A stretch of 62,421 nt of DNA, from IMG/VR virus record IMGVR_UViG_3300035665_000031, positions 1-62,421 of that record. The stretch is one strand, 5' to 3'. A program made the position numbers and the translations under genes. This DNA comes from a virus (Duplodnaviria; Caudoviricetes). The first letter of the stretch is position 1. Each line of letters starts with the position of its first letter. Below the pieces are notes generated by a model, which was not told where the DNA came from, did no database searches, and saw only the letters and a program-made list of their open reading frames with translations. Below are positions 4,268-36,506 of this stretch, piece by piece.

Positions 4268-5050
4268 TCATATCAATTTTTTCAATAGATTAACAAAATT
4301 ATTCATATCTTCCTCAGAACAACCACTAATGGTATCATGAATCGAATGACAAATTCTCCAGGTATGTGGAAAATCAATTGTTAACTCATTTTCTGGTAAT
4401 AAACCTAAGCACACACTAACAATACCATTGCTTCTTAATATCACTGAGTCATTAAATGGTGTCATCTTAAAATAAACTTCATCATCAAATGAGTTATTCA
4501 AATAATCAATCAAATCAATAAATGGGTGGGTTTGCATATACGGTAATTTACCATCACAAAAAATCTTATTTCCAAAACCAGTTAACTCAAAATTTAATAC
4601 AACCACATTAGAACCAAATATCCCAGACTTTATATCATCACTTAATCTTGCGGCTCCATTTCCACCAAATTCTTCATTGTCAGTAAAATAAAATACTATA
4701 TTCTTATTCAACGTGTTTCTATCGATTGAACTAGCCAAAGCCAATAAATTACAAATACTAGCACTATTATCTTGAGCATTCTGAGAATCCAAATTTACAA
4801 CATCATGGTGTGCTAAAAATATAATAGTATCACGATGGTCAATAATATCAAACCTACCCCATACATTCCTTAAATTACCACCCAAATAATAATGATTGAA
4901 ATCACTAAATCTAGGTTCTAACCCTATTTCAGTTAACTTGTTAGTTATAAAATCTAACCTGGGTGTTTGATAGAAGTTTCTTGGTGATGCATTGTTCACC
5001 ATTGGTTTAATCAAAACCAATTCACTTAATAACTCATAAGGGTTCATCAT
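4268..5050 (-). CDS. M28 family zinc peptidase
   Basis: AHHD, AQDNSAS, NEEFG and C-terminal HSIHDT motifs. Confidence 0.85.
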   Translation of the reverse strand: MMNPYELLSELVLIKPMVNNASPRNFYQTPRLDFITNKLTEIGLEPRFSDFNHYYLGGNLRNVWGRFDIIDHRDTIIFLAHHDVVNLDSQNAQDNSASICNLLALASSIDRNTLNKNIVFYFTDNEEFGGNGAARLSDDIKSGIFGSNVVVLNFELTGFGNKIFCDGKLPYMQTHPFIDLIDYLNNSFDDEVYFKMTPFNDSVILRSNGIVSVCLGLLPENELTIDFPHTWRICHSIHDTISGCSEEDMNNFVNLLKKLI

Positions 5051-5367
5051 AATGGTAATGTGAGTGTGTTAGATATTATCTCATAATCTTCACTTAAACC
5101 AGAATCTAGTTTTAAAATACAAGAACACAAAATTGATAAGTGAATGAACTCATGGTATTCTTGCTTCTTGCTTACCTTATCTAAAAACTTAAATCCATTG
5201 CCATTATCAAACACAGATAATAATTTAATTGAACGATAATGCTCAGACCAACCTGAACTATCAGTTGTCCATAATTCCCATAAACTACCATCCGATGTTT
5301 TAGTTTGGATAACCTCGTAAGGTACCGATTTATCTGTTTTGTTTAAAACACTAAATTTTGTTGTCAT
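5047..5367 (-). CDS. Hypothetical protein
   Basis: ORF track. Confidence 0.7.
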   Translation of the reverse strand: MTTKFSVLNKTDKSVPYEVIQTKTSDGSLWELWTTDSSGWSEHYRSIKLLSVFDNGNGFKFLDKVSKKQEYHEFIHLSILCSCILKLDSGLSEDYEIISNTLTLPL

Positions 5368-5552
5368 AGTACTTCAATTATTTTTATTTTAGTTGGTAAA
5401 TACCATATACCATTTATCTTAACTTGCTTAATACACCCTAGCGAATTGAAGAAACATGGTGGGTTGAATTCAAACATAATATCATCAAAAACACCCAACT
5501 GAGTTTGGTTTTCATCCCCTATAGTAAATATCACTGTATCTCCAATTTGCAT
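5364..5552 (-). CDS. Hypothetical protein
   Basis: ORF track; TAnnTTTG box just upstream. Confidence 0.6.
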   Translation of the reverse strand: MQIGDTVIFTIGDENQTQLGVFDDIMFEFNPPCFFNSLGCIKQVKINGIWYLPTKIKIIEVL

Positions 5553-8380: not shown

Positions 8381-10072
8381 TTACATTTCAATCTTATTCA
8401 TCATTTCTTGATTCATTGCTGCCTCAAATAATTCCTTAGCGTTCTTAGGTTCAGAAGACTTACCTTCAACAACCTCAGTTCCTGTTAAGAAAGCAATCAC
8501 AGACCCATCGTACCCACTGAAATAATATACATTATCCACATCACCATATGTTTCAAATTTCTTTCCAGTAGTAGAACCATATGCACGACTTTGTAAGTTC
8601 CACAACACAATCTTGAATTTAGAAACATATTCTTCGCTAAACCCAGCATTTCTTAATGTAGACAACGCTGTTTGTACGTTTGTCTTACCCAATTCTGATG
8701 GATTGAATTCAGCATCTGAAATACATAATATACCAGTTGGGAATTCTGATTCAGAAACACCTGACTGTTTAATGTTAACAAACAATCTAATAACTGATTG
8801 GAAATCTGTACTTCCAACAAATCCTGACCTATCGTTAGTCCATTTTTCGTGAGGTGTTGAACCTTTCCAAGTATGCATCTTAGCTGATGAGTTGAACTCA
8901 ATCCAAGAGTTAGCAAAGTGCCCATTAGGCAACATGTAGCTGAAGAACAAAGCCAAAGCCTTAGCAATATCAAAACAAGATTGTGATGTACCAGTCGCTG
9001 AACTACCCATAGAACCAGATGTGTCTCTTACAACAATCATGGATGTATTTGTAGTTGCATTTTTCATTGCAGTTTCAACCAACCCCATGAATTGAGCATT
9101 AAGGGTATCAATTTGATACTTCTTGCTAGGCATCTTGGTAAACAACTCATGTGGATAACCAGTGAACTTAGCTGTTGGCTTAGATGCAATCCAAGCTTCG
9201 TATTTAGCTTCAAGTCCGTTGTTAGCCAAATATTTACCTGATACCAGCAAAGATAACGCTCTACCATGAATTGTATCGAAATTCACCAATTTATGGTTTC
9301 CTTGTGAAATCAATTGTTGCCATTGGTGGGCAGTACCATTGCTTTTCAACTTACGGTATTTAACATACCCAGTCAACGCACTTGTTTCTTTCTTACCGAA
9401 TAACAATGAGCAAATCCATTTTGAAATGATATTATCTGCTTGTGATTCAATTGTAGTACACTTTTTAGATGCTTTGATTTGAGGCAAGTACTTCTTAACC
9501 AATTCTGACGTATTTGGGTTCTCCAAGCCAGCTAAAATCAATTTACCGAACTTTTCCCAGTCCAATACTCTATTTGCCCAACCATTGTATTGCAAGTCAT
9601 AAGATAACATAACAAAGATGTCTTTCCATGAACCTAAGCTAACAAACAGTCCGATGTTTTTCCAGAAAGTATTTGGATGATTGATGTGTAACCAAATCAT
9701 ACGCATGATACCTTCATGCTTAAGACCACCACCTCTTTGAGTAGTTTCTGTCTTGGTACCATCCATCAAAGATACTGTACGTGTAATCATTCTTAAATAG
9801 AATGCAAACGCAACAGTCATTTGTTTATCTTGTGCCCAAAGAGTACTCATATCTTTTGCGATATCAGCATATGTTCTTGGTGACTTATATGAACCAATTA
9901 CACCAAATTGGTCAACAAAATCATTTCCAGTTGTTGAATATTTCAACGCACCGTTTCCAGATAATGTCTTTGCAGATTCTTTTTTACCAGCATTCAAAAA
10001 CCCATTGGTTGATGATACGGTTGTTGAACCTACATTTGAAGTGATTAATGATTTTTGTTTTGTATTGAACAT
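8381..10072 (-). CDS. DUF2828-type / TROVE(Ro60)-like protein with C-terminal vWA domain
   Basis: MIDAS elements RDTSGSM, STDF, ISDAEF; GSWKD in the N-terminal helical region. Confidence 0.75.
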   Translation of the reverse strand: MFNTKQKSLITSNVGSTTVSSTNGFLNAGKKESAKTLSGNGALKYSTTGNDFVDQFGVIGSYKSPRTYADIAKDMSTLWAQDKQMTVAFAFYLRMITRTVSLMDGTKTETTQRGGGLKHEGIMRMIWLHINHPNTFWKNIGLFVSLGSWKDIFVMLSYDLQYNGWANRVLDWEKFGKLILAGLENPNTSELVKKYLPQIKASKKCTTIESQADNIISKWICSLLFGKKETSALTGYVKYRKLKSNGTAHQWQQLISQGNHKLVNFDTIHGRALSLLVSGKYLANNGLEAKYEAWIASKPTAKFTGYPHELFTKMPSKKYQIDTLNAQFMGLVETAMKNATTNTSMIVVRDTSGSMGSSATGTSQSCFDIAKALALFFSYMLPNGHFANSWIEFNSSAKMHTWKGSTPHEKWTNDRSGFVGSTDFQSVIRLFVNIKQSGVSESEFPTGILCISDAEFNPSELGKTNVQTALSTLRNAGFSEEYVSKFKIVLWNLQSRAYGSTTGKKFETYGDVDNVYYFSGYDGSVIAFLTGTEVVEGKSSEPKNAKELFEAAMNQEMMNKIEM

Positions 10073-10333
10073 CGTTTTAATTTTTAAAAGTTAATTATCT
10101 TATTGCTTGATGATAAAGGAAAGTTTCACCCAACCTAAATCATTAATTACTGTATGGCACCACACCATCATAAACTGTCATCTTCGAACTAGGTTTGGTA
10201 ACCCACAATGAATAAGCATATCAAGCTTAATTAGTTTTGATTGCTAACCCACCCGCTAAGATAGTTAGCCACACACCAGACTTTACTGGTACTATTATGA
10301 TTTCATTGTTGTTCAAATAAGAACAGTAATTTG

Positions 10334-10420
10334 TTGGGAGGGTCTGAATTGAACAGACGACACATGGGTTTTCATGACTATCGCTAGTCTACCACTGCTC
10401 TACCACTGAGCTACCTCCCA
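10334..10420 (-). tRNA. Atypical tRNA-like RNA with extra hairpin in the anticodon arm (possible GAA anticodon)
   Basis: Acceptor tgggagg/cctccca, canonical D arm and T arm; gacta-gcga-tagtc hairpin inserted before TGAAAA. Confidence 0.65.
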
Positions 10421-10673
10421 ATATTTAATTTAATTCTATGTTATGAAATTCTAAAGCATAAAAATTAAGACCACAAGCTAACTCATATATCTCATCAAAT
10501 GACTCCGTTCCTAACACCTGATTTAACATTTGTAATAATGTGTTTGCAATAAATTGTAAAAATATTTTCTTCATGTTAAATTATATGCAAACTTACTACT
10601 TATTTTCCTAACTCAAACAGATTATTTAAAAATATTTTTTAACCGCTTGATTTTCAATGTATTTTTTTTTGTG

Positions 10674-10934
10674 TTAACCTTCGTAATTATATACGTAATG
10701 AATATCATCAATAATTTTATCAATTGCTTCATTTAACCTCATAACTTTGAATTTATCGTAATAGATGAATGGTAGTTTCAATTTCTTAGTATTCTTAAGA
10801 ATCTTATCGTTGAATTCCTCATTTAATTCATCACATTTAAGATTTAGCAACCCATTATCAAAAGAGATGTAATCTTTTATGATATCATTACCTAATGTAT
10901 CAACGATAACATAAGCTTCTGATACTTTTTTCAT
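10674..10934 (-). CDS. Hypothetical protein
   Basis: ORF track. Confidence 0.65.
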   Translation of the reverse strand: MKKVSEAYVIVDTLGNDIIKDYISFDNGLLNLKCDELNEEFNDKILKNTKKLKLPFIYYDKFKVMRLNEAIDKIIDDIHYVYNYEG

Positions 10935-11004
10935 GTTAGTTATTTTTTATTATTAGATGATATTAGTAAAGCTAATACTAATATCACGCAAATGATTAAT
11001 AATT

Positions 11005-11232
11005 TCATACTTCAGCTAATTTACAAGTGCGAATATCCACCACTGAACCATCATCCATAACAAACGCTGGCTTTCCTGAATTTGGGTTGATGGTCAAGTC
11101 AACAACCTTTCCAATCTTAAAACCAGACTTGAATGGCTTACCAGAATGTTTAGTAACAAAGTGTCCCAAGAATTCTTCACTGTTGATAATATCAAATGAG
11201 TTTTTCATAACTTGATTTTTAAAATTACCCAC
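11005..11232 (-). CDS. Hypothetical protein
   Basis: ORF track; real start probably the internal ATG. Confidence 0.6.
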   Translation of the reverse strand: MGNFKNQVMKNSFDIINSEEFLGHFVTKHSGKPFKSGFKIGKVVDLTINPNSGKPAFVMDDGSVVDIRTCKLAEV

Positions 11233-11264
11233 AAATATAAGTTAAATTATTGAATCTACCAAAT

Positions 11265-11807
11265 TTATTTTAATTTAATCCTGGATAACCGTTGCTTAAG
11301 CCTTTTTTCGGGTATAACACTATCACCAATAGCATGTTCATAGATATTATCGATTTTAACCTTGATTTCAGACGCTAAAAACATCAAATCAATGGTTGTT
11401 ACCATTGTGATAACATCCTTCTTCCCATCACGCTTATATAAGCAATATAAGCATTCATCTGGTGATGTAACATATGTTTTCTTGATATTAAGCTTAACAA
11501 ATGATTGAAGCTTATATTTTGGAACCACAATCCAATACTTAAAGGTTTCAAATATAAAGCAATCCGCATCACCATATAACCAACCATGTCTACCATTTAC
11601 ATTCTTTATTTCAATATAATGAAATGATTCATTGGGTTCATTATCTGAACGATTGACCCTCTTAAGACCCTTTACATCGTATTTTATTTCATTTGATTTA
11701 AAATCCCAATGTTGGGTCTTATCCGTATCAGCTAAGCTAAATATTGGATTATCAAACAACTTAGATACACTTAATTCCTTCTCTTTTCCCTCACTTAAAA
11801 AACTCAT
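11265..11807 (-). CDS. Putative PD-(D/E)xK nuclease-fold protein
   Basis: HWDF...YDVKG...IEIKN...GWLYG pattern. Confidence 0.55.
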   Translation of the reverse strand: MSFLSEGKEKELSVSKLFDNPIFSLADTDKTQHWDFKSNEIKYDVKGLKRVNRSDNEPNESFHYIEIKNVNGRHGWLYGDADCFIFETFKYWIVVPKYKLQSFVKLNIKKTYVTSPDECLYCLYKRDGKKDVITMVTTIDLMFLASEIKVKIDNIYEHAIGDSVIPEKRLKQRLSRIKLK

Positions 11808-11828
11808 TCAACAAATATACTAAATTTC

Positions 11829-11902
11829 TGGTGGAGCGTGTCGGAATCGAACCGAAAAATACTTCATTGCAAGTGAAGATTGCTAGCCATCGCATCAGCC
11901 CC
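11829..11902 (-). tRNA. tRNA-Ala(TGC)
   Basis: GGGGC start, cttca-CTTGCAA-tgaag arm, GGTTCGATTCC, encoded CCA; weak D arm. Confidence 0.85.
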
Positions 11903-11930
11903 ATATTTTAATCATATTTTTTTAACTAAC

Positions 11931-12779
11931 TTAAAAACCTAATTTATTATACATTTTAACCCATTTCCTAATAGAATTATCACTGACCCCATATTTTCTA
12001 CCAGTGGCTGAATAACCTAAAACTTCAATATCTTTTATTAATTCTTCATATGATGGTCTTTCAATTTTTCTTTGAGATAAAAAATTATTTTTTTGTTTAT
12101 ATGTTATTCCATTAAGTTCTTTTCTTTCACTATTTAATTTAGTTGAAACTCTAATTTGTTTTGATTTTTGAATTATTATGCCACAATTACCAATTGTTTT
12201 GGATGTACCAATGAAATCTAACAATTCTTTTATTACCAAATCACAATTTTGTAAAACTTGTTTTGCTTCAATTCTATATATGCGCCAATTATTTTTTCTT
12301 AATACTTCATTTTTTTCATTGTCTTTAATTATTCTAGATTCAAGTTTATGTTGTGAACCATCAATTTCAACAGCTACTTTCTCATTTTCAAAAGCAAAAT
12401 CAATAAAATATGGAAAAACAGACCGTTCTCTTATGATTAAAAAATTATTATTTATATTATTTCTAACTAAACCATCCTCAAATAACTTCTCAGGATAACT
12501 CATATTTGATAACCTCCAAGCTGTTTTTTCTGGATTTTCTAACATATATTTTAAACGCTTTTGTTTAAGTGTTTCTTTAACACATCTTATATCACCACAA
12601 GTACTATGAAAAACTAACCCATCTTTATGGTTTACATTTTTACCACAAATACATTTTGGTATTTTAAGATTTTCAAACCGTATCATGTAATCGATTAACT
12701 TACAATTATGATTATAGCTACAATGCCTAGCTAAACCGATATTACCTTTAACGTTTTCATTACAAATTTTACAAACCAT
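11931..12779 (-). CDS. DUF559/Vsr-like endonuclease with Zn-binding N-terminus and C-terminal HTH (probable homing endonuclease)
   Basis: YFIDFAF, VEIDGSQH, WRIYRI motifs; lies inside a tRNA cluster. Confidence 0.8.
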   Translation of the reverse strand: MVCKICNENVKGNIGLARHCSYNHNCKLIDYMIRFENLKIPKCICGKNVNHKDGLVFHSTCGDIRCVKETLKQKRLKYMLENPEKTAWRLSNMSYPEKLFEDGLVRNNINNNFLIIRERSVFPYFIDFAFENEKVAVEIDGSQHKLESRIIKDNEKNEVLRKNNWRIYRIEAKQVLQNCDLVIKELLDFIGTSKTIGNCGIIIQKSKQIRVSTKLNSERKELNGITYKQKNNFLSQRKIERPSYEELIKDIEVLGYSATGRKYGVSDNSIRKWVKMYNKLGF

Positions 12780-12876
12780 ATTTATTGTTTTATTATAAAT
12801 ATGTAATAAAACAATAAACGAACACTTATTTTTCGAATAAGGTTGACGTGCTAAATTTATTTCAAAGAACTACTAG

Positions 12877-12960
12877 TACCCCACATGGGAATCAAACCCA
12901 CTCTATCATTTCTGAATTTTCCTTGAAAGGGAAATCGCTCACTCCTTTGCATTATGGGGC
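12877..12960 (-). tRNA. tRNA-Glu(TTC), enlarged variable region
   Basis: gccccat/gtggggt acceptor, tttcc-CTTTCAA-ggaaa arm. Confidence 0.8.
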
Positions 12961-12965
12961 AAATT

Positions 12966-13045
12966 TGGCGGTCTATCTCGAATTCGAATCGAGCTGTTTG
13001 TACTGCGTGACAGGCAGACGGACACTCCCAGCATCCCCATAGACC
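12966..13045 (-). tRNA. tRNA-Asp(GTC)
   Basis: ggtctat/atagacc acceptor, ctgc-CTGTCAC-gcag arm, GCCA end. Confidence 0.85.
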
Positions 13046-13053
13046 ATATTTTG

Positions 13054-13126
13054 TGCGATGAGAGGGACTTGAACCCCCAACGCCAGCTTCTTCGGAGCTG
13101 CGCTCTACCAATTGAGCTACCAACGC
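13054..13126 (-). tRNA. tRNA-Phe(GAA)
   Basis: Canonical D and T arms, cagct-CCGAAGA-agctg arm. Confidence 0.85.
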
Positions 13127-13134
13127 ATATAAAC

Positions 13135-13163
13135 AAAAAAAGTCCTGATTTTTGGTCAGGACT
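13135..13163 (-). terminator. Attenuator-like terminator ahead of tRNA cluster 1
   Basis: agtcctga/tcaggact stem followed by U run, about 8 nt before tRNA-Phe. Confidence 0.8.
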
Positions 13164-13190
13164 CTTTATCAATTTTATTAAGTTAACGAA

Positions 13191-13280
13191 TTAACTTTTG
13201 ACAATAGTTGACCATCCGAAGATATAATCATCTTCAGCCGCAAAAAACGCACGTTCAAATATGTTGTTAACTGTTCTCAT
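13191..13280 (-). CDS. Leader peptide 1 (MRTVNNIFERAFFAAEDDYIFGWSTIVKS)
   Basis: Hand translation; between promoter and terminator; enriched in F/E/A/D, matching downstream tRNAs. Confidence 0.75.
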   Translation of the reverse strand: MRTVNNIFERAFFAAEDDYIFGWSTIVKS

Positions 13281-13304
13281 TTCTTTTTGTTTAATAAATA
13301 TATG

Positions 13305-13312
13305 CAAAGATA
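13305..13312 (-). promoter_or_regulatory. Bacteroidota-type -7 box (TATCTTTG) for leader 1 and tRNA cluster
   Basis: Matches TAnnTTTG; same context at 36322-36329. Confidence 0.7.
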
Positions 13313-13423
13313 CATATTATTTTCGATATGACAACACATATCTCATATTTATTTTATATAGTATTGATTATCAACTGATTATTTTTAATATATGATATGA
13401 AATATCGTATATATTACTAATAT

Positions 13424-13489
13424 ATGTTGTATATACGATATAATTTGTTGGGTATGCGATAAGAAATTACGCATATAAGTAAGTTATGT
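13424..13489 (+). mobile_element. attI-like site heading array 2
   Basis: Two TGTTG-ATA-CGATA direct repeats then ATAAGTAAGTTAT; conserved at 28027 and 36441. Confidence 0.75.
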
Positions 13490-13495
13490 GCAAGG

Positions 13496-13699
13496 CTACT
13501 TTCTCGTAAAAACGACATTTTGTAACCAAACATCAAAAGAGCTTTCTTGTAATATTTTTTCCTTAGTTTCTTTAGGATGAACAAGTATTCCATAATTCAT
13601 CATGTTCTCTAAATCCATATTTATTCTACCTCTGTGAAAGGCTTCTCGTAAAACTACCTTTGGAAAAAATATCATCAATAATCTTGTCTTAAACTTCAT
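13496..13699 (-). CDS. Cassette-borne hypothetical protein
   Basis: ORF fills cassette. Confidence 0.7.
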   Translation of the reverse strand: MKFKTRLLMIFFPKVVLREAFHRGRINMDLENMMNYGILVHPKETKEKILQESSFDVWLQNVVFTRK

Positions 13700-17494: not shown

Positions 17495-19063
17495 TTAAAG
17501 TAGTGTTGTATATTCTCTTTCATCACCAATAAAAAATAGATGTTGATATTTTCCGTTATTATGAATAATAATATCACATAATGCCCAGGTTGATAATCCG
17601 TTGTTATAACCTAACCTTAGTTTTGTTTTGGTTCCAACTTGTGCCGACCCATTTTTTCTTGATGGTGAGTGTGCGTGTGCTGTAATAATCTTGGTTCCCA
17701 ATTTGGTGTATTGTGTTGGTGAGCCTTTGCTACCATTTACACCATCCATACCATGAACTCCCAATTCAATATCTTTAATCTTATATGATTGGTTTCTATT
17801 TAAGCATTTAACCTTAGGGTACTTCTCGTTAATCAAATAAGCTATAAGACCATTAGGTGCCTTGTCTTCCAATAAAATCTTAGCGTATTCCATATACTCC
17901 AAAGCATTCTTAACATTCCTCTTTGGGTCACCATTGATAATAAACCTATTTAAGAAATCGTCATGATTTGAGAATACAACTGTTAAATTTAAATGTGATA
18001 AGCTATCAACCCAATTTAACATTTCATTTATTTCTTTCTTCAATGAGTTTGAATTCGAAACCTCATTTTGATATTGCTTAATAAAATTATTTGCTTCATG
18101 TGGGTTTATTGAATACCCGTCAAATAGGTCATGAAGTATAATCTCTTTGGGATTAAATGTGGGTATTATTTCCTCTACTGAGCGTTGCATTGACTTGACA
18201 TCATGGTTACCATAGTGAACATCACCCATTACATAAGCTGCAATATCATTTATTTGTGTTACAACACCATCACTAACTGAATTATTTAAATCACAAAATG
18301 AACCATCATTCATTGCGGTTGCTTGTCTAACAAAAAACAACTCATCATCCTTTATTTCAACGATAGCGCAAGCTAAAACATGATGGAATGAAGCCACCTT
18401 ACCTATTTTACTATCTGTGTAGTTTTTAACAGTACAAGTACCAGTTGTCAAAATAATCTTAGGCTTCTCAGCATTCAACACTGGAAGTGTTTTCATATGA
18501 ACTCTAGGATGTCCACCAATGGCCGACATATTGTTTGTAAGAGCTTCTAATGATGAAAGTGGGTCTGAAGCTGTTGGTTGAATCTTAACATCACTTAAAA
18601 TCGATATATTATTATTAAGATTATGTCTATTCAGTGTAAGATATGGAATTACTTCTGGAACCCATACTTCATCCGTTTCATTATTTTTATTCCACATTGA
18701 TGTTGGATTTCTATAACGATATGGAATAACCAATAATTCAGCGTCTAAGTATTCAGCATAAGCTTTAAGGTTATTAAAAAACTTTGCATGTACTTTGGTT
18801 GCATTTTGTGCTGATGTAATAATAAATCTCTTTTTGGACTTATCATGCTTTTTCTTCTTTGCAGTAACCAGTAGTTCTGGTTCGATATCAACTCTTTCTT
18901 TTAGTCCTAATTTGTTTGCGGTCCATTTTCTAATGGTTCTTTCAGAAACCCCGAAATGCTCACCTAATTTGGCTGCTCTTTTTTCCCAAGGGCCACTGTT
19001 GATGTCTTTGTAAGTTGCGATAATATGTAATTTATCTTCATCACTTAAATCTTTAAATTTCAT
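17495..19063 (-). CDS. HTH plus calcineurin-like metallophosphoesterase
   Basis: N-terminal GVSERTIRKW; GDVH, HDLFDG, SNHD, HG, AHAHS motifs. Confidence 0.75.
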   Translation of the reverse strand: MKFKDLSDEDKLHIIATYKDINSGPWEKRAAKLGEHFGVSERTIRKWTANKLGLKERVDIEPELLVTAKKKKHDKSKKRFIITSAQNATKVHAKFFNNLKAYAEYLDAELLVIPYRYRNPTSMWNKNNETDEVWVPEVIPYLTLNRHNLNNNISILSDVKIQPTASDPLSSLEALTNNMSAIGGHPRVHMKTLPVLNAEKPKIILTTGTCTVKNYTDSKIGKVASFHHVLACAIVEIKDDELFFVRQATAMNDGSFCDLNNSVSDGVVTQINDIAAYVMGDVHYGNHDVKSMQRSVEEIIPTFNPKEIILHDLFDGYSINPHEANNFIKQYQNEVSNSNSLKKEINEMLNWVDSLSHLNLTVVFSNHDDFLNRFIINGDPKRNVKNALEYMEYAKILLEDKAPNGLIAYLINEKYPKVKCLNRNQSYKIKDIELGVHGMDGVNGSKGSPTQYTKLGTKIITAHAHSPSRKNGSAQVGTKTKLRLGYNNGLSTWALCDIIIHNNGKYQHLFFIGDEREYTTLL

Positions 19064-22309: not shown

Positions 22310-22560
22310 TATTCTATTGTATATTCAGTTATTTTTGTTATTGGTTTTGGTGATACAACACAACCTTTTATAATCAATACACCATCACCCCAATAGTTCG
22401 TATCATTTTCTTTTGGTAATTTATCAAAAACTTCACGACCAGCCCCATAATACCCATCATTTATGCGTATTAAAAGTTCTTCTTTATTTATGGCTTCAAC
22501 ATTTGTGTCACCATCTGAATTTGTTATTACAAAGTAAGTTTCCATATTAGTTGTTTTCAT
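22309..22560 (-). CDS. Hypothetical protein
   Basis: ORF track, translationally coupled. Confidence 0.7.
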   Translation of the reverse strand: MKTTNMETYFVITNSDGDTNVEAINKEELLIRINDGYYGAGREVFDKLPKENDTNYWGDGVLIIKGCVVSPKPITKITEYTIE

Positions 22561-24188
22561 TAGTAGTTATTTAAATCTTTACTGGGTGCGTACTTCTTAA
22601 GTAGATTACGTCTTTCAGTTATAATTGCTTGTGATGCTGGATAATTATGATTTGTGTCACTATATAAATTCAGTGGCATATTATCCATCTGTTCTCTAAT
22701 ACGTGCCCTAATGGTAGGGAAATCATCATCCTGAGCAATACCAAATGGCTTATTTATACGCAAACCATTAAAGTATTCAACCAAGGCATTTGGGCCAACT
22801 TCATAATCAAAAATAATTGTTCTTTTTGATTCTAAGGCTTCTGGTGTTCTGAGTAGTTTAAAAGGACCACATAAGGTTGTCTTGCCAAGTGTTTCTGAAA
22901 ACTTAACAACACCTTGATGGTCATAACCCATAGCATTCAATGCATATTTGGCTGAAATCATATCTCTACTCAATCCATTTCTTAACCCACCACCTGAACC
23001 AAACAACCCCCAAGCATAAAATGCAAAGTCTTCAGCAATCAATGCATCCATAATTTCAAGCATAACATCAAATGTCATTCCATCACCTTCAATAAATCTA
23101 AGTGATGTTGGAAACTTCCAAGTCTTTCCATCAATTTTTTGATATGATACTAACCCAGCTTTTACTGCTTCTCTAACAATAAACATAACTTCTTCCAATG
23201 GGTTTCCAGAATCTGGTCTAGCTACAACTATCTTTCCATTGGCTTCTTTTATTGAACGTAGGGCTAATGGAATTAAATGTTTAATTACAGCATTCTTGGA
23301 ATCGTAACAATCATCAACCATTGATAGTATTGAATCATCTGGCGATTCGTTATAAAGTGTTTCATAACAATCACCTTCAAACTCATATGATTGAACGTTA
23401 CGGTGAGCTAAGGCGTAAACGGATGCTGCGACAAATGTTTCACCAGCATTTTTCCATGCTTGATATGCACCTGATGTTGTATCAGTATTTGGGAAAGTAT
23501 ATAAATGAACCATTCCAAGTTCTTCGGATTCTTGTTCGGTCATACCAGCCCTATCCCCAAAATCGGTAAGAATCAACGAAGCTGATAAATTTAAATCTTC
23601 ATCACTTATATTTGGGTTAACTAGTTTTATTTTTTCCTTTACCTTTTTATAAAAATGTTCATTCTGAGTAACCCTAGCTGAAGTTGACCAAACTTGCAAT
23701 AGTTTTGATTCGAACCAAGCGGATAATTCACCCTTATGTTTTGATTGAGACCAGATTTGTAGGGCTGGTTCATTTGGATAAACAACACTTCCTTCTGGAA
23801 GTCCTTCAATAAGAATTGGTGGTCTACCATTAAAATGGTCTACAACATCTCTCCACATTTGTTCATCAAACTCATACCTGGCTAACCCTTTGTTTGTTGC
23901 TCTAAAATTAGCTAAGAACCTTTTGGTTTCATCAATTTCCTCATGTGTAATTGGGTCATAGAATAACCTTTCTAATATTCGTTGAATACCAGTAAAAATA
24001 ATTCTATGGTCATCAGCATCATATAACTTAGGGTTTACTGAATGTAGTATACGTCTAAATGTAACGTAATAAACTGATTTATCTTTGGCTAATGTACTTT
24101 GAAATTGACCACTACCTATTGTATAGGCATCAACCAACAATCGTGGTGTCTTAAAAATTTTTCTTTTGGGTAATATTACTTCTGACAT
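22560..24188 (-). CDS. Nicotinamide phosphoribosyltransferase family protein
   Basis: DAY, LPEGS, DFGDR, RPDSG, IEGDG, FGSGGGL motifs. Confidence 0.88.
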   Translation of the reverse strand: MSEVILPKRKIFKTPRLLVDAYTIGSGQFQSTLAKDKSVYYVTFRRILHSVNPKLYDADDHRIIFTGIQRILERLFYDPITHEEIDETKRFLANFRATNKGLARYEFDEQMWRDVVDHFNGRPPILIEGLPEGSVVYPNEPALQIWSQSKHKGELSAWFESKLLQVWSTSARVTQNEHFYKKVKEKIKLVNPNISDEDLNLSASLILTDFGDRAGMTEQESEELGMVHLYTFPNTDTTSGAYQAWKNAGETFVAASVYALAHRNVQSYEFEGDCYETLYNESPDDSILSMVDDCYDSKNAVIKHLIPLALRSIKEANGKIVVARPDSGNPLEEVMFIVREAVKAGLVSYQKIDGKTWKFPTSLRFIEGDGMTFDVMLEIMDALIAEDFAFYAWGLFGSGGGLRNGLSRDMISAKYALNAMGYDHQGVVKFSETLGKTTLCGPFKLLRTPEALESKRTIIFDYEVGPNALVEYFNGLRINKPFGIAQDDDFPTIRARIREQMDNMPLNLYSDTNHNYPASQAIITERRNLLKKYAPSKDLNNY

Positions 24189-26369: not shown

Positions 26370-27191
26370 TTAAGAATTTCTCATTACTGAAGTTATATCT
26401 TTTACCAATTCCAAGTGTTGGTCACCATAAGGTTGCCAAGCTAACCCAAGTGTTTTCAAATCATATGATTTAACTATGGTACTATATGTTGTAACACCTT
26501 CTGGATGTCCTATCACATGGATTGAGTCAGCTAACTCAACTGCTAAGTGTAAATCGTGAGTTGAAAAGATAATTGTATTCATTTCATGTGCGGCCTGGTA
26601 TTTTTTGATTGCTTCCTTCAATTTCTCAATGGAAATAACATCTAATGATGCCGCTGGTTCATCAAATATCATAAAATGCTTATTTGATAAGATATTTTCT
26701 AGAATAGCCAAACGTTGCCTTTGTCCACCACTAAGGTCACATGAAAATTTATCTTTATGCTCCAATAACCCCCATTCAGATAAATAACCATCTATAATGG
26801 TCTTTTTTTCTTGTTTTGAAGCATTATTACCCCTTAAGGCATACTCACACATAGAATAAACTGATTTGTGTCTAAAAAGCGTGTATTTTTGACTCACTAG
26901 ACCAATATCACCAACATCAATTGGCTTAGCCACGTCATTATCGGTAATATTCAAATCTTTTATCAATATTGAACCTTGTGTTGGCTTAAGCAAACCAGTT
27001 AGTCCTTTGAATAGGGTTGATTTGCCTCTACCTGACCTACCCAATATTGCTATAATTTGACCAGTTGCTTCGAAATCATTTCTAACCACATTTCTTTCTG
27101 TGAAAGAAATTGATTTAAGGATGGGATTGTCTTTAGAGTAACCCAAATCAACATTTTGTAACTCTAAGAGTGTATTTGTTAAGCTGTACAT
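26370..27191 (-). CDS. ABC transporter ATPase (NitT/TauT-like)
   Basis: GRSGRGKST, LSGGQRQR, FDEP, STHD. Confidence 0.92.
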   Translation of the reverse strand: MYSLTNTLLELQNVDLGYSKDNPILKSISFTERNVVRNDFEATGQIIAILGRSGRGKSTLFKGLTGLLKPTQGSILIKDLNITDNDVAKPIDVGDIGLVSQKYTLFRHKSVYSMCEYALRGNNASKQEKKTIIDGYLSEWGLLEHKDKFSCDLSGGQRQRLAILENILSNKHFMIFDEPAASLDVISIEKLKEAIKKYQAAHEMNTIIFSTHDLHLAVELADSIHVIGHPEGVTTYSTIVKSYDLKTLGLAWQPYGDQHLELVKDITSVMRNS

Positions 27192-27193
27192 AA

Positions 27194-27958
27194 TTAAAAT
27201 TTTGAATAAGGAAATGATAATTTTCTTATTTGGGTTAATAACCAATCCAAAACAACACCTATGATAATAATTATGATTTGTACGGCAATTACTCTACCGT
27301 TGCTTCCAATTCTATCACCATTTTTTATCAAAAACCCAAGACCACCAGCTGAAATCAAAATTGATTCAACCGTGACAATTGACATCCAAACAATTGCTAA
27401 ATTTTGTCTTAAGCACTCAATAACATAATCTAATCTACCTACAATAATAACTTCATAAAGAGTCTCCCATTTGGTACAACCTTGTGTTCTAGCATGTTCA
27501 AATTCATCATCTGGAATATCTTTTATCATAGCTAATAATGATGTTATCAAAAAAGATGTCATAAATGCAACCAAGACCCATATCTGAATCATTCTAGCGT
27601 CAGTCACGAACATTGTTATGTAAAATGTTATTCCAGTAAGTGGTAAATACCTTAGCTTTGAAATAATGATTGATAGTGGTTTTAATTCACTTATTGGTGA
27701 CGAATACACTATCAGTAAAGAAATAATTAAAGATATAGCTATTGCTGAAAAACATAAAGTTAATGAGGATAGAATATGAACCACCAACCCATCACGCCAT
27801 AAATCACCAAAACCAGTAAAAACCTGGTTGATGCTTGGAAACATGTGGGTTGTGTTAAAAAGTGAATGTGACCCCCACAATAATAATAAAATAAAAACCC
27901 ATCCACCTAATATGAGTTGGTTTTGACTCTGGGTTAGTTTTGAAAAAGGTTTGAACAT
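27194..27958 (-). CDS. ABC transporter permease (NitT/TauT-like)
   Basis: Multiple TM helices, EHARTQG EAA-like loop, GGLGFLI. Confidence 0.88.
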   Translation of the reverse strand: MFKPFSKLTQSQNQLILGGWVFILLLLWGSHSLFNTTHMFPSINQVFTGFGDLWRDGLVVHILSSLTLCFSAIAISLIISLLIVYSSPISELKPLSIIISKLRYLPLTGITFYITMFVTDARMIQIWVLVAFMTSFLITSLLAMIKDIPDDEFEHARTQGCTKWETLYEVIIVGRLDYVIECLRQNLAIVWMSIVTVESILISAGGLGFLIKNGDRIGSNGRVIAVQIIIIIIGVVLDWLLTQIRKLSFPYSKF

Positions 27959-28026: not shown

Positions 28027-28092
28027 ATGTTGTATATGCGATATAAATTGTTGAATATACGATATAAAGTTGCGTCAATAAGTAAGTTATAT
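28027..28092 (+). mobile_element. attI-like site heading array 3
   Basis: atgttgtatatgcgatataaattgttgaatatacgata...aataagtaaGTTAT, matching 13424 and 36441. Confidence 0.75.
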
Positions 28093-34817: not shown

Positions 34818-35555
34818 TTAATCATCTAAATATTTTTGAATATTATCTTCATAAGATTTAACCCATTTTCTTATTGCGTTATCACTAACACCATATTTTC
34901 TACTAAGTGAAAGATAACTATTATTTTTTAAATCATTAATTAATTCTTCATATGTTGGTCTATTAACTCTACGTTGTTTTAATGCTCTATCAATTTCTTT
35001 TTGTGTTTGAACTCTAGGTTGTTTAATTAATGGAGGTAGGTTTTTATTTAACTCAATTAATTTTAATTTATTCTGATGAATTTTAGTGTTCTTCCCACAA
35101 TAATTATGGGTTAATGCGTGACAATTAGGACATAATATTTGTATATTTTTTAAATTATTATCAAATCTATCACCATTTATGTGGTGTAATTCTAGTGGTA
35201 TTGGTTTATCAGCCCAAATATATAATTTGCAATTCTCACATTTATGTTCTTTATAACCCTCTCTAATTAAACGAATTCGTAAATTATTTGATGAAATATA
35301 TTTAACTTTATTTGTTAAAATATCTTCCATTTTAATTCTAAAATTAAATGTCTCTTTTCTACCCAACTTGGTTCCGAGTGACCATTTATGTCCAAGAAAA
35401 TGTGATATGTCTATATTAAATGATTTCAATCTTTTCTTTAAAGTCATAAAATTACTACCACATATAACTATATTTAGTTTACGACAAACATCAGATATTG
35501 TTTTTGAATCACTAACCGCTTTTTTTAATTCTTCTTCTGTAAATTTATATTTCAT
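34818..35555 (-). CDS. HNH endonuclease with C-terminal HTH (probable homing endonuclease)
   Basis: CENC, LELHHINGD, NIQILCPNCH; directly after tRNA-Leu. Confidence 0.9.
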   Translation of the reverse strand: MKYKFTEEELKKAVSDSKTISDVCRKLNIVICGSNFMTLKKRLKSFNIDISHFLGHKWSLGTKLGRKETFNFRIKMEDILTNKVKYISSNNLRIRLIREGYKEHKCENCKLYIWADKPIPLELHHINGDRFDNNLKNIQILCPNCHALTHNYCGKNTKIHQNKLKLIELNKNLPPLIKQPRVQTQKEIDRALKQRRVNRPTYEELINDLKNNSYLSLSRKYGVSDNAIRKWVKSYEDNIQKYLDD

Positions 35556-35559
35556 ATTG

Positions 35560-35632
35560 TACTCTTAGAGAGATTCGAACTCTCAAACACGGGTTCTAAA
35601 GCCGTGACGGTTACCAATTACGTCATAAGAGC
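35560..35632 (-). tRNA. tRNA-Leu(TAG), no long variable arm
   Basis: gctctta/taagagt acceptor, TTTAGAA loop, gagag-TTCGAAT-ctctc. Confidence 0.75.
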
Positions 35633-35682
35633 ATGTTAATCTGTCCAACCATTACATCAGACGGATTTTTATTTATTAAAGG

Positions 35683-35771
35683 TGGGCCTTGAGGGGGTCG
35701 AACCCTCACCCTACTATTACTTCAGAACACTGTTTAAGAGTGTCGTGTACTGCCAATTTCACCAAAGGCCC
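35683..35771 (-). tRNA. tRNA-Leu(TAA)
   Basis: gggcctt/aaggccc acceptor, acact-CTTAAAC-agtgt arm, long variable region. Confidence 0.88.
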
Positions 35772-35780
35772 ATTTTATCT

Positions 35781-35984
35781 TTACACCAAAAAATGTCTCA
35801 ATTTTGAATTATTCATTTCTTTTTGTTCTTTTATTTTTGTGGTTAATTCATCAATAATATTAGTATAGAGTTCTTCTCTATCACTATTGATATTTTTCTC
35901 ACACTCTGGGTGTAAGGTATAGATTTTATCTACCACCTTAACCAGCCCAGTTATTTCTTTATTGCAATATTCACACGTAAACAT
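35781..35984 (-). CDS. Small Zn-binding hypothetical protein within tRNA cluster
   Basis: CEYC...HPEC. Confidence 0.6.
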   Translation of the reverse strand: MFTCEYCNKEITGLVKVVDKIYTLHPECEKNINSDREELYTNIIDELTTKIKEQKEMNNSKLRHFLV

Positions 35985-36000
35985 AATTTCTTTTTTTTAG

Positions 36001-36073
36001 TACCGCTAAATGGAATCCAACCATTGTATCTACTTTGTAAGAGTAGTGTTCTGAAGCACTGAACTATAGCGGC
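36001..36073 (-). tRNA. tRNA-Val(TAC), divergent D and T loops
   Basis: gccgcta/tagcggt acceptor, ctact-CTTACAA-agtag arm. Confidence 0.75.
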
Positions 36074-36090
36074 ATATTTTTTATTTCCAG

Positions 36091-36161
36091 AGCGTGGTGA
36101 TGGACTCAAACCATCATACCATGTTTTGCAGACATGTCCCTAATCTTTCGGGCAACCAGGC
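36091..36161 (-). tRNA. tRNA-Cys(GCA)
   Basis: catgt-CTGCAAA-acatg arm, U73 discriminator. Confidence 0.82.
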
Positions 36162-36169
36162 TTATAATG

Positions 36170-36205
36170 AAAAAACCCTCAGATTTTTAACGTCTGAGGG
36201 TTTTT
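36170..36205 (-). terminator. Attenuator-like terminator ahead of tRNA cluster 2
   Basis: aaaaaccctcaga/tctgagggttttt stem with U run, about 8 nt before tRNA-Cys. Confidence 0.8.
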
Positions 36206-36225: not shown

Positions 36226-36297
36226 TTAAACGCACAGACAACCATTACCTAATAATAGGCATAACACTAGGACTAATATGTTGTTTGATGTTCTCAT
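36226..36297 (-). CDS. Leader peptide 2 (MRTSNNILVLVLCLLLGNGCLCV)
   Basis: Hand translation; 13 of last 16 codons are Leu/Val/Cys, matching downstream tRNAs. Confidence 0.75.
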   Translation of the reverse strand: MRTSNNILVLVLCLLLGNGCLCV

Positions 36298-36506
36298 TTC
36301 TTTTTGTTTAATAAATATATGCAAAGATACTACTTATTTATGATATAGCAATACTTTATTTATATTTATTTCTTATTTTGTTGATTATCAACTGATTATT
36401 TTTAATATATGATATGAAATATCGTATATATTACTAATAAATGTTGTATATGCGATATAAATTGTTGGATATACGATATGAATTATCGTCAATAAGTAAG
36501 TTATAA
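36275..36506. repeat. About 230-bp duplicated module (leader start, promoter, attI-like site), second copy near 13259-13489
   Basis: Long identical blocks, e.g. tgttctcatttctttttgtttaataaatatatgcaaagatac and ttgattatcaactgattatttttaatatatgatatgaaatatcgtatatattactaata. Confidence 0.9.
36441..36506 (+). mobile_element. attI-like site heading array 4
   Basis: Same direct repeats and AATAAGTAAGTTAT core as 13424 and 28027. Confidence 0.75.

Follow-up and report, generated by a model that had tools for sequence, protein, structure and literature searches.

The window analysed here is the whole of IMG/VR record IMGVR_UViG_3300035665_000031, a stretch of 62,421 bases from a virus (Duplodnaviria; Caudoviricetes). 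On its minus strand, between positions 13312 and 11829, it carries a group of transfer RNA (tRNA) genes preceded by a promoter, a short open reading frame (ORF) and an intrinsic terminator. This group, together with a second one of the same build elsewhere in the record, is examined below as a putative leader-peptide attenuator of a phage tRNA operon. The record has an estimated completeness of 18% and a G+C content of ~30%, nearly all of its genes lie on the minus strand, and reading under code 11 works well for them. The A1-like protein encoded at 17495-19063 is most similar to proteins of phages of Flavobacteriia (43% identity), and its relatives at 50-61% identity sit on contigs of 300-540 kb. 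A clear TAnnTTTG box is found 12-36 nucleotides (nt) before the start codon of ~25 window genes; according to PMC9723704, TAnnTTTG is the flavobacterial sigma-A -7 box, at position -12 to -5. Taken as sequence evidence, these features make us read the window as a fragment of a huge phage with a Bacteroidota host. Its DNA is present in lake-water metagenomes of 19 studies, and none of the runs containing it there is recorded as RNA.

The initial annotation of this DNA had described, in minus-strand order, a promoter, a 29-codon ORF, a strong terminator, tRNA-Phe, tRNA-Asp and tRNA-Glu genes, an endonuclease gene and a tRNA-Ala gene, and all of these elements were found to be present (Table 1). 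The identity of the tRNAs held in part: Phe and Asp were called by ARAGORN with default settings, whereas Glu and Ala were missed by default ARAGORN and are weak calls, obtained as Glu(ttc) and Ala(tgc) at a relaxed threshold. In a related genome the order is kept as Phe, Phe, Glu, Asp, Asp, Glu, a gap and Ala. The count of ten Phe, Glu, Ala or Asp codons among codons 8-18 of the ORF, also given in that annotation, was correct. Over the whole ORF after codon 7 (leader 1), 11 of the 22 codons specify Phe, Asp, Glu or Ala, compared to a background of 0.219 in the window's own protein composition (binomial 3.4e-3). Among the 282 small ATG ORFs of 20-45 codons on both strands of the window, only leader 1 reaches 50% of these residues, and it uses two Ala codons that are rare in the phage but readable by the operon's own anticodons. 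The terminator hairpin has 12 pairs with a free energy (dG) of -14.0 kcal/mol and ends ~10 nt ahead of tRNA-Phe. No conserved promoter box was found between terminator and tRNA in the window, where the gap is too short for a promoter to fit.

Table 1. Features of the two tRNA modules in the window (positions refer to the whole stretch; dG in kcal/mol).
Module	Feature	Position	Strand	Basis or remark
1	Upstream block, near letter-for-letter match to module 2; holds a tandem operator-like 20-nt repeat	13370..13470	-	Alignment of both upstream regions
1	-7 promoter box, TAnnTTTG type	13305..13312	-	Position rule of PMC9723704; transcript start predicted at ~13300
1	Leader ORF 1, 29 codons + stop; codons 1-7 common to leader 2	13191..13280	-
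1	Control codons 8-18 of leader 1, 10/11 Phe/Glu/Ala/Asp	13227..13259	-
1	Hairpin within leader ORF 1	13216..13237	-	Minimum-energy and centroid folds
1	Candidate antiterminator strand, codons 23-25	13206..13214	-	Pairs with 13163-13161 and 13158-13153 of terminator 5' arm/loop
1	Small hairpin over the leader 1 stop codon, enclosed by the antiterminator fold	13180..13197	-
1	Intrinsic terminator 1: 5' arm 13167-13156, loop 13155-13149, 3' arm 13148-13137, then T-run	13131..13167	-
1	tRNA-Phe (GAA)	13053..13126	-	ARAGORN; Rfam 54.7 bits
1	tRNA-Asp (GTC), atypical	12966..13045	-	ARAGORN; absent from Rfam listing
1	tRNA-Glu (TTC), long variable arm, weak call	12877..12960	-	Rfam 30.7 bits (gathering 29); relaxed ARAGORN only
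1	Homing-endonuclease-like ORF inside operon	11931..12779	-	Pfam DUF559, E 1.4e-11; PHROG HNH endonuclease
1	tRNA-Ala (TGC), weak call	11829..11902	-	Rfam 27.6 bits at 11902-11832, below gathering 29; relaxed ARAGORN
2	-7 promoter box	36322..36329	-
2	Leader ORF 2, 23 codons + stop; codons 8-23 with 13 Leu/Val/Cys	36226..36297	-
2	Intrinsic terminator 2, dG -16.8; ends 8-11 nt ahead of tRNA-Cys	36170..36205	-
2	tRNA-Cys (GCA), tRNA-Val (TAC), 67-codon ORF, tRNA-Leu (TAA), tRNA-Leu (TAG)	35559..36161	-

A search of the record with the leader 1 region revealed a second copy at 36346-36275, which belongs to a whole module at 36329-36170. The two modules align over ~220 nt upstream at very high identity, a stretch that takes in the promoter, the 5' leader and the first seven codons; from codon 8 the leaders part ways. 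Thirteen of the 16 variable codons of leader 2 specify Leu, Val or Cys (binomial 1.1e-8, against the protein composition of the window) and none of them Phe, Asp, Glu or Ala, whereas a single codon of the 22 in leader 1 specifies Cys, Val or Leu (Fisher P = 2.7e-6 for the contrast between the leaders). Among the 282 small window ORFs, only leader 2 reaches its own Leu/Val/Cys threshold. Three of its Leu codons are rare in the phage but readable by the anticodons of its own operon.

Related loci were collected by alignment of the A1-like protein with 21 of its 120 listed homologues, and 80 of the 301 matched loci were kept. tRNA genes were found in 8 of the 81 sources, the window being counted as one of them. 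Three of these loci (L028, L029 and L030) carry the same type of promoter, a 34-codon ORF that starts like the window leaders, a strong terminator and then tRNA genes in the order Pro, Pro, Gln, Tyr, Thr, Gly, Gly, Lys; their ORF is dominated by Thr, Gly, Tyr, Gln, Pro and Lys codons. In five related records that are complete or nearly so (G001-G005; 291-389 kb) and gave 3 to 65 tRNA matches, the tRNA regions were examined as well. Three groupings of tRNAs recur in them, namely Cys/Val/Leu, Phe/Glu/Asp/Ala and Pro/Gln/Lys/Gly/Tyr/Thr.

A survey in which codon content was ignored was then applied to the 600 nt upstream of each tRNA gene with a preceding gap of at least 90 nt (107 places, 191 ARAGORN calls, 21 sources). 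It looked for ATG ORFs of 9-71 codons with a stop codon lying between 6 nt inside and 70 nt before a hairpin followed by a T-run, and it yielded 37 ORF-hairpin candidates. Fourteen modules in seven records of related huge phages (345-389 kb) passed a filter that likewise made no use of codon content (a hairpin no weaker than -11 kcal/mol, 15-35 nt from stop codon to hairpin, and 20 or more codons in the ORF). Their build is constrained: the spacing from stop codon to hairpin is 21-29 nt in all 14, every terminator hairpin has an energy between -13 and -19 kcal/mol with a T-run after it, and in seven modules the hairpin ends 6-18 nt ahead of the first tRNA. A -7 box, looked for within 150 nt upstream of each leader, is present in 12 of the 14 modules, at 24-92 nt from the start codon, compared to a background density of 0.134 per 150 nt.

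The codon content of these leaders follows the tRNA genes downstream. With the tRNAs of each operon counted up to the next module, the residues of a leader's own tRNAs are over-represented (P<0.05) in 12 of the 14, and the two others have P values of 0.064 and 0.13. The initial annotation had proposed that leader codons should co-vary with downstream anticodons across related phages. The outcome was strongly positive: among eight operon types, a leader's own tRNA set came first for 13 of the 14, and when the first member of each type was permuted, 1 of 40,320 arrangements, the true pairing itself, attained the observed score. The match extends to the level of codons, as 98 of the 122 leader codons in four- and six-codon families are readable by the operon's anticodons under strict wobble, compared to 83.0 expected from the codon usage of the clade (z 3.55).

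The Phe/Asp/Glu/Ala leader of the window and its orthologue in the related record G002 have equal length and share 66 of 90 bases. Within codons 8-18 eight codons are changed, five of them synonymously, two by Glu/Asp swaps and one to Phe. Outside this stretch 2 of 10 changed codons are synonymous, and 7 of 10 are non-synonymous changes between residues outside the tRNA set. This distribution of the substitutions argues for selection on which tRNA reads the control codons and not on the peptide as such.

For leader 1, the initial annotation had noted that UGGUCA late in the leader can pair with UGACCA in the arm and loop of the terminator. This pairing exists between 13214-13209 and 13158-13153; allowing a 2-nt bulge, it reaches 9 pairs, but its energy is no better than chance, being matched by 37% of random window segments and 28% of shuffles. 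Judged alone against random window segments, neither window duplex beats chance; against dinucleotide shuffles their z values are -2.04 and -0.35, the latter for leader 1. When the RNA is cut after the terminator loop, which mimics ongoing transcription, the 5' arm of the terminator pairs with codons 23-25 of leader 1 and with codons 20-21 of leader 2. This antiterminator persists until the aminoacyl site (A-site) of the ribosome moves past codon 18 in leader 1 or codon 15 in leader 2, and is then lost. The hairpin at 13237-13216 within leader 1 may be a pause or 1:2-like element; in the fold without a ribosome it does not tie up the antiterminator strand.

Over the family of 14 modules, the best duplex between leader and terminator 5' arm has a mean z of -2.33 against dinucleotide shuffles, with 10 of the 14 at <=0.05. 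In 13 of the 14 this duplex involves the distal part of the ORF, and that of leader 1 is at the matching relative place. In a cross-comparison of 13 by 13 modules, from which L029 was dropped as a near-duplicate, the pairing was specific to a leader's own terminator: none of 20,000 random pairings matched the observed score, and the own leader was the best partner for 7 of the 13 arms, the window modules ranking 5th and 6th. According to a simulation of the ribosome footprint, the 5' arm is sequestered with the A-site on the control codons and freed after passage in 13 of the 14. Between the window and G002, the apical sequence of the terminator and the complementary leader strand both differ with complementarity kept, as read from the alignment. 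Mutually exclusive terminator and antiterminator folds, which the initial annotation had suggested looking for, thus find support at the level of the family but weakly for leader 1 alone.

We consider it likely that these elements gate a phage tRNA operon as a leader-peptide transcription attenuator dependent on the ribosome, and that this attenuator is one of a family in a clade of huge phages with Bacteroidota-type promoters. The attenuator with codons matching its own tRNA operon that had been claimed for this locus is supported by the co-variation and by the antiterminator tests over the family. The observed features that carry this reading are the anatomy of the modules, the co-variation of codons and tRNAs, the complementarity of leader and terminator and the constrained spacing. 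As we picture it, transcription would start at the TAnnTTTG promoter, and a ribosome would translate the short leader, whose mid-leader codons would be read by the tRNAs encoded just downstream (Phe, Asp, Glu and Ala). With ample charged tRNAs, the ribosome would cover the far end of the ORF, the terminator would form 21-29 nt past the stop codon and the tRNA genes would remain silent. If any of the matching charged tRNAs became scarce, the ribosome would stall on the control codons, the antiterminator would form with the 5' arm, and transcription would read through into the tRNA genes. Leader translation, the direction of the switch, its kinetic nature and its physiological trigger are predictions. 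The molecules sensed would be the operon's own products, which would make the circuit a negative feedback on tRNA supply; since the tRNAs of the operon read the control codons, it should be self-limiting. In nature, the codons could become hungry through the AT-rich codon usage of the phage relative to the host tRNAs, through loss of host tRNAs after shut-off, through anticodon nucleases or through amino-acid starvation.

Several points weigh against this reading. The antiterminator of leader 1 is weak alone (-8.9 to -9.4 kcal/mol, with its own pairing 6th of 13) and is the weakest of the family. Truncated leader 1 forms it even without a ribosome, which departs from the trp paradigm. Moreover, equilibrium folds of the full leader keep the terminator at every masked ribosome position, so that the switch has to be kinetic, as it is in the classical attenuators. 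Translation, termination and read-through are all predictions from the sequence. The filter thresholds were chosen after the list of candidates had been seen, and the tRNA identities come from ARAGORN at a relaxed threshold. Several modules are orthologues, the counts over 14 are therefore not independent, and the permutation over eight types answers this only partly. In 5 of the 14 modules, 100-440 nt lie between the terminator and the first called tRNA. The ORF of L109 (start 4259, 44 codons) fails every test (enrichment, ranking, duplex and footprint) and is probably no leader. No module precedes the Phe cluster of G003, where an ordinary gene stands instead. In the window itself, tRNA-Val (GAC) follows a 49-codon ORF without a terminator and without a Val-rich leader, so that not every tRNA here has an attenuator.

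Translation of the leader might act by another route, stalling controlling the processing or stability of the tRNA precursor, the logic being inverted so that smooth translation leads to read-through, or the hairpin being mainly a processing or stability element. The persistence of the terminator in the full-length equilibrium folds and the weak antiterminator of leader 1 fit such a route; in several modules the antiterminator strand is also free again with the ribosome at the stop codon. In addition, the terminator abuts the 5' end of the tRNA, where RNase P cuts. However, the hairpins lead into T-runs, as intrinsic terminators do, there is specific complementarity between a leader's distal end and the 5' arm of the terminator in its own module, and in 13 of the 14 modules the strand is free under a stalled ribosome and covered by a passing one, as the standard logic predicts. 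We therefore regard this explanation as improbable.

It is much less plausible still that the short ORFs encode functional small peptides, with the terminators ending those genes and the tRNAs being made by constitutive leak-through, even though leader 2 and its orthologues are hydrophobic, the Leu/Val/Cys-rich ORF resembles a signal or membrane peptide, and the N-terminal codons are conserved between both window leaders. In each of the eight operon types the composition of the leader follows its own tRNAs, the peptide is poorly conserved outside the control codons while these change synonymously or within the tRNA set, and the complementarity between leader and terminator speaks against a mere coding function. 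Finally, the ORFs could be incidental, arising by chance in AT-rich leader regions before leaky terminators. With 282 short ORFs of 20-45 codons in the window, the enrichment of leader 1 taken alone is modest (P 3.4e-3), but only the two leaders reach their thresholds among these 282, and chance would have to account for the permutation result, the spacing of 21-29 nt and the frame-specific substitutions. We consider this extremely unlikely. The preferred reading remains that of a transcription attenuator governed by the codons of its leader.

Other observations were made on the promoters and upstream regions of the modules. The tandem operator-like 20-nt repeat lies upstream of both tRNA-operon promoters (13424-13464 and 36441-36481, minus strand) and also at 28027-28067 (minus strand), upstream of an ABC-transporter gene pair; five matches were found in the window compared to 0.04 expected. 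It may be a shared binding site for a putative regulator. A third tRNA region of the window, that of tRNA-Val (GAC) at 10333-10574 (minus strand), has a 24-nt insertion in the anticodon region, with a promoter and the 49-codon ORF, which is not Val-rich, upstream. The three tRNA-linked promoters (10595-10582, 13312-13299 and 36329-36316) have identical six bases after the -7 box, where most other window promoters have an A-rich stretch instead; this six-base extension may mark a distinct promoter or timing class. The A-rich 5' untranslated and start region is complementary to the U-rich tract after the terminator, over 12 pairs in module 1 (13291-13280 with 13141-13130) and over 8 pairs in module 2 (36298-36291 with ~36173-36166). 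This could be a chance match of an A-run with a U-run, or it could block the start site in transcripts that end at the terminator.

Contigs of four lake-water DNA runs were compared to positions 10200-13600. The stretch from leader to terminator and tRNA genes was identical in long pieces, except for a low-depth difference at 13181, and gave no covariation signal. Over 13291-13461, contigs of runs X2 and X17 carry an upstream block with a few differences from either window copy, and variant pieces over the same positions match module 2, some of them perhaps from a further copy. The variant block could come from a third module at another genomic position or from a variant strain.

Both tRNA operons contain homing-endonuclease-like genes, either internally or at their end (11931-12779 and 34818-35555, minus strand), and these genes have a similar C-terminal helix-turn-helix part. 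In G002 (L101), a similar endonuclease-like ORF is inserted between the terminator of the Phe/Asp/Glu/Ala leader and the first tRNA gene, tRNA-Phe. The phage's Asp and Glu tRNAs (12877-13045) are structurally unusual. In three relatives, a mini-ORF of 14-15 codons with a run of Lys codons ends 42-43 nt before the tRNA-Lys group (L028 ~5360-5446, L029 ~4480-4565, L055 ~1155-1244), followed by a hairpin without a T-run, and at L028:2701 an ORF starting with Lys and Met codons runs into tRNA-Lys/tRNA-Met. These ORFs may be reduced relatives of the leaders or may have arisen by chance in A-rich DNA. At L044:219, L098 and L102, tRNAs with the amber-reading anticodon CTA were given the label 'Pyl' by ARAGORN, a hint that part of the clade may suppress or recode stop codons.

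As is typical of large phages, the window also has auxiliary genes, here for a nicotinamide phosphoribosyltransferase-like protein, an ABC transporter and a DUF7788/DUF2828 protein (22560-24188, 26370-27958 and 8381-10072). The ABC-transporter pair consists of a permease (27958-27194) and an ATPase (27245-26370), and the DUF7788/DUF2828 protein carries the PHROGs label RNA-binding.

Other routes to relatives of the modules gave none. Scans of viral and metagenome contigs with a pattern of promoter plus leader start returned chance matches only; the scan loci L003-L005 and L007-L016 were discarded as ordinary genes without tRNAs. A scan with part of the tRNA-Cys gene led to L006, an unrelated GC-rich phage. 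The operator-like repeat, used as a scan pattern, had no match in the contigs scanned, and no related loci were obtained with two single flanking proteins. Similarly, blastn of the region against a phage collection matched nothing beyond fragments of tRNA or endonuclease genes.

Phage tRNA genes are usually discussed as constitutive helpers with codon usage or as spares against tRNA-cutting defences, and to our knowledge the control of their expression is largely unknown. We lean towards a broader hypothesis: that the tRNAs of this clade are sorted into operons by amino-acid set because each operon has its own composite-leader demand sensor, which opens when any matching charged tRNA runs short, so that feedback keeps the tRNA pool matched to codon usage. 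The phage could also replace host tRNAs lost to shut-off or to anticodon-nuclease defences. This would be the first case of tRNA genes under leader-peptide attenuation, and the first in which the expression of phage tRNAs is controlled by sensing their supply. If this is true, the phage gauges the demand of translation for each codon and produces tRNAs only as required, a classic bacterial mechanism is extended to tRNA genes and to phages, and the grouping of tRNAs by amino-acid set in these genomes would be explained. The modules are compact (~170 nt) and modular, with a common promoter and leader start and an exchangeable codon cassette, and could serve as natural sensors of charged-tRNA supply in Bacteroidota.

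Among known systems, the tRNA clusters of phages such as T4, T5 and the huge phages share with the present operons clustered tRNA genes interrupted by homing-endonuclease genes; the abstracts covering them mention no leader-peptide attenuator before a tRNA cluster. Full-text literature searches, for which subscription journals were mostly outside scope, gave no precedent for an attenuator or leader peptide before tRNA genes, in agreement with the initial annotation, which knew of no described attenuator for phage tRNA operons. The Rfam gathering scan of the whole window matched tRNAs only. Leader 1 had no leader-family match at E<=1 in Rfam, and leader 2 scored 27.9 bits against a threshold of 49 for His_leader (RF00514) and 23.1 bits against 55 for Phe_leader (RF01859); these scores are well below threshold and place the module outside any Rfam leader family. 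The sub-threshold matches to STnc370, GibS, His_leader and Phe_leader were taken as chance or as generic hairpin likeness.

T-box riboswitches act without translation, through direct binding of uncharged tRNA, and their targets are synthetase and amino-acid genes. They resemble the phage modules in having a codon-like specifier matched to one tRNA and in gating a terminator before genes of the translation apparatus. A T-box riboswitch was rejected here, with no match in the Rfam gathering scan of the window nor a sub-threshold one around either module. The pheST attenuator of E. coli with its pheM leader controls phenylalanyl-tRNA synthetase and senses charged tRNA-Phe. Like the phage modules, it applies leader-peptide attenuation to the translation apparatus and not to biosynthesis, but it controls a synthetase and not tRNA genes, responds to a single amino acid and belongs to a bacterial chromosomal gene.

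Leader-peptide attenuators regulate the amino-acid biosynthesis operons trp, his, pheA, leu, thr and ilv, and leaders responding to several amino acids are known for ilv and thr. The phage modules have in common with them a short ORF with regulatory codons, an intrinsic terminator before the regulated genes and a pairing with the 5' arm that stalling permits. This type of control is well established and has been modelled (PMC1183508), and leader-peptide attenuators are suspected in flavobacteria, having been suggested in Flavobacterium (PMC9723704). Compared to the biosynthesis attenuators, the phage modules show no clear 1:2 element, they are directed at tRNA genes in a phage setting, with feedback by their own products, and their leaders combine up to 6-11 amino acids that mirror the tRNA set of the operon.

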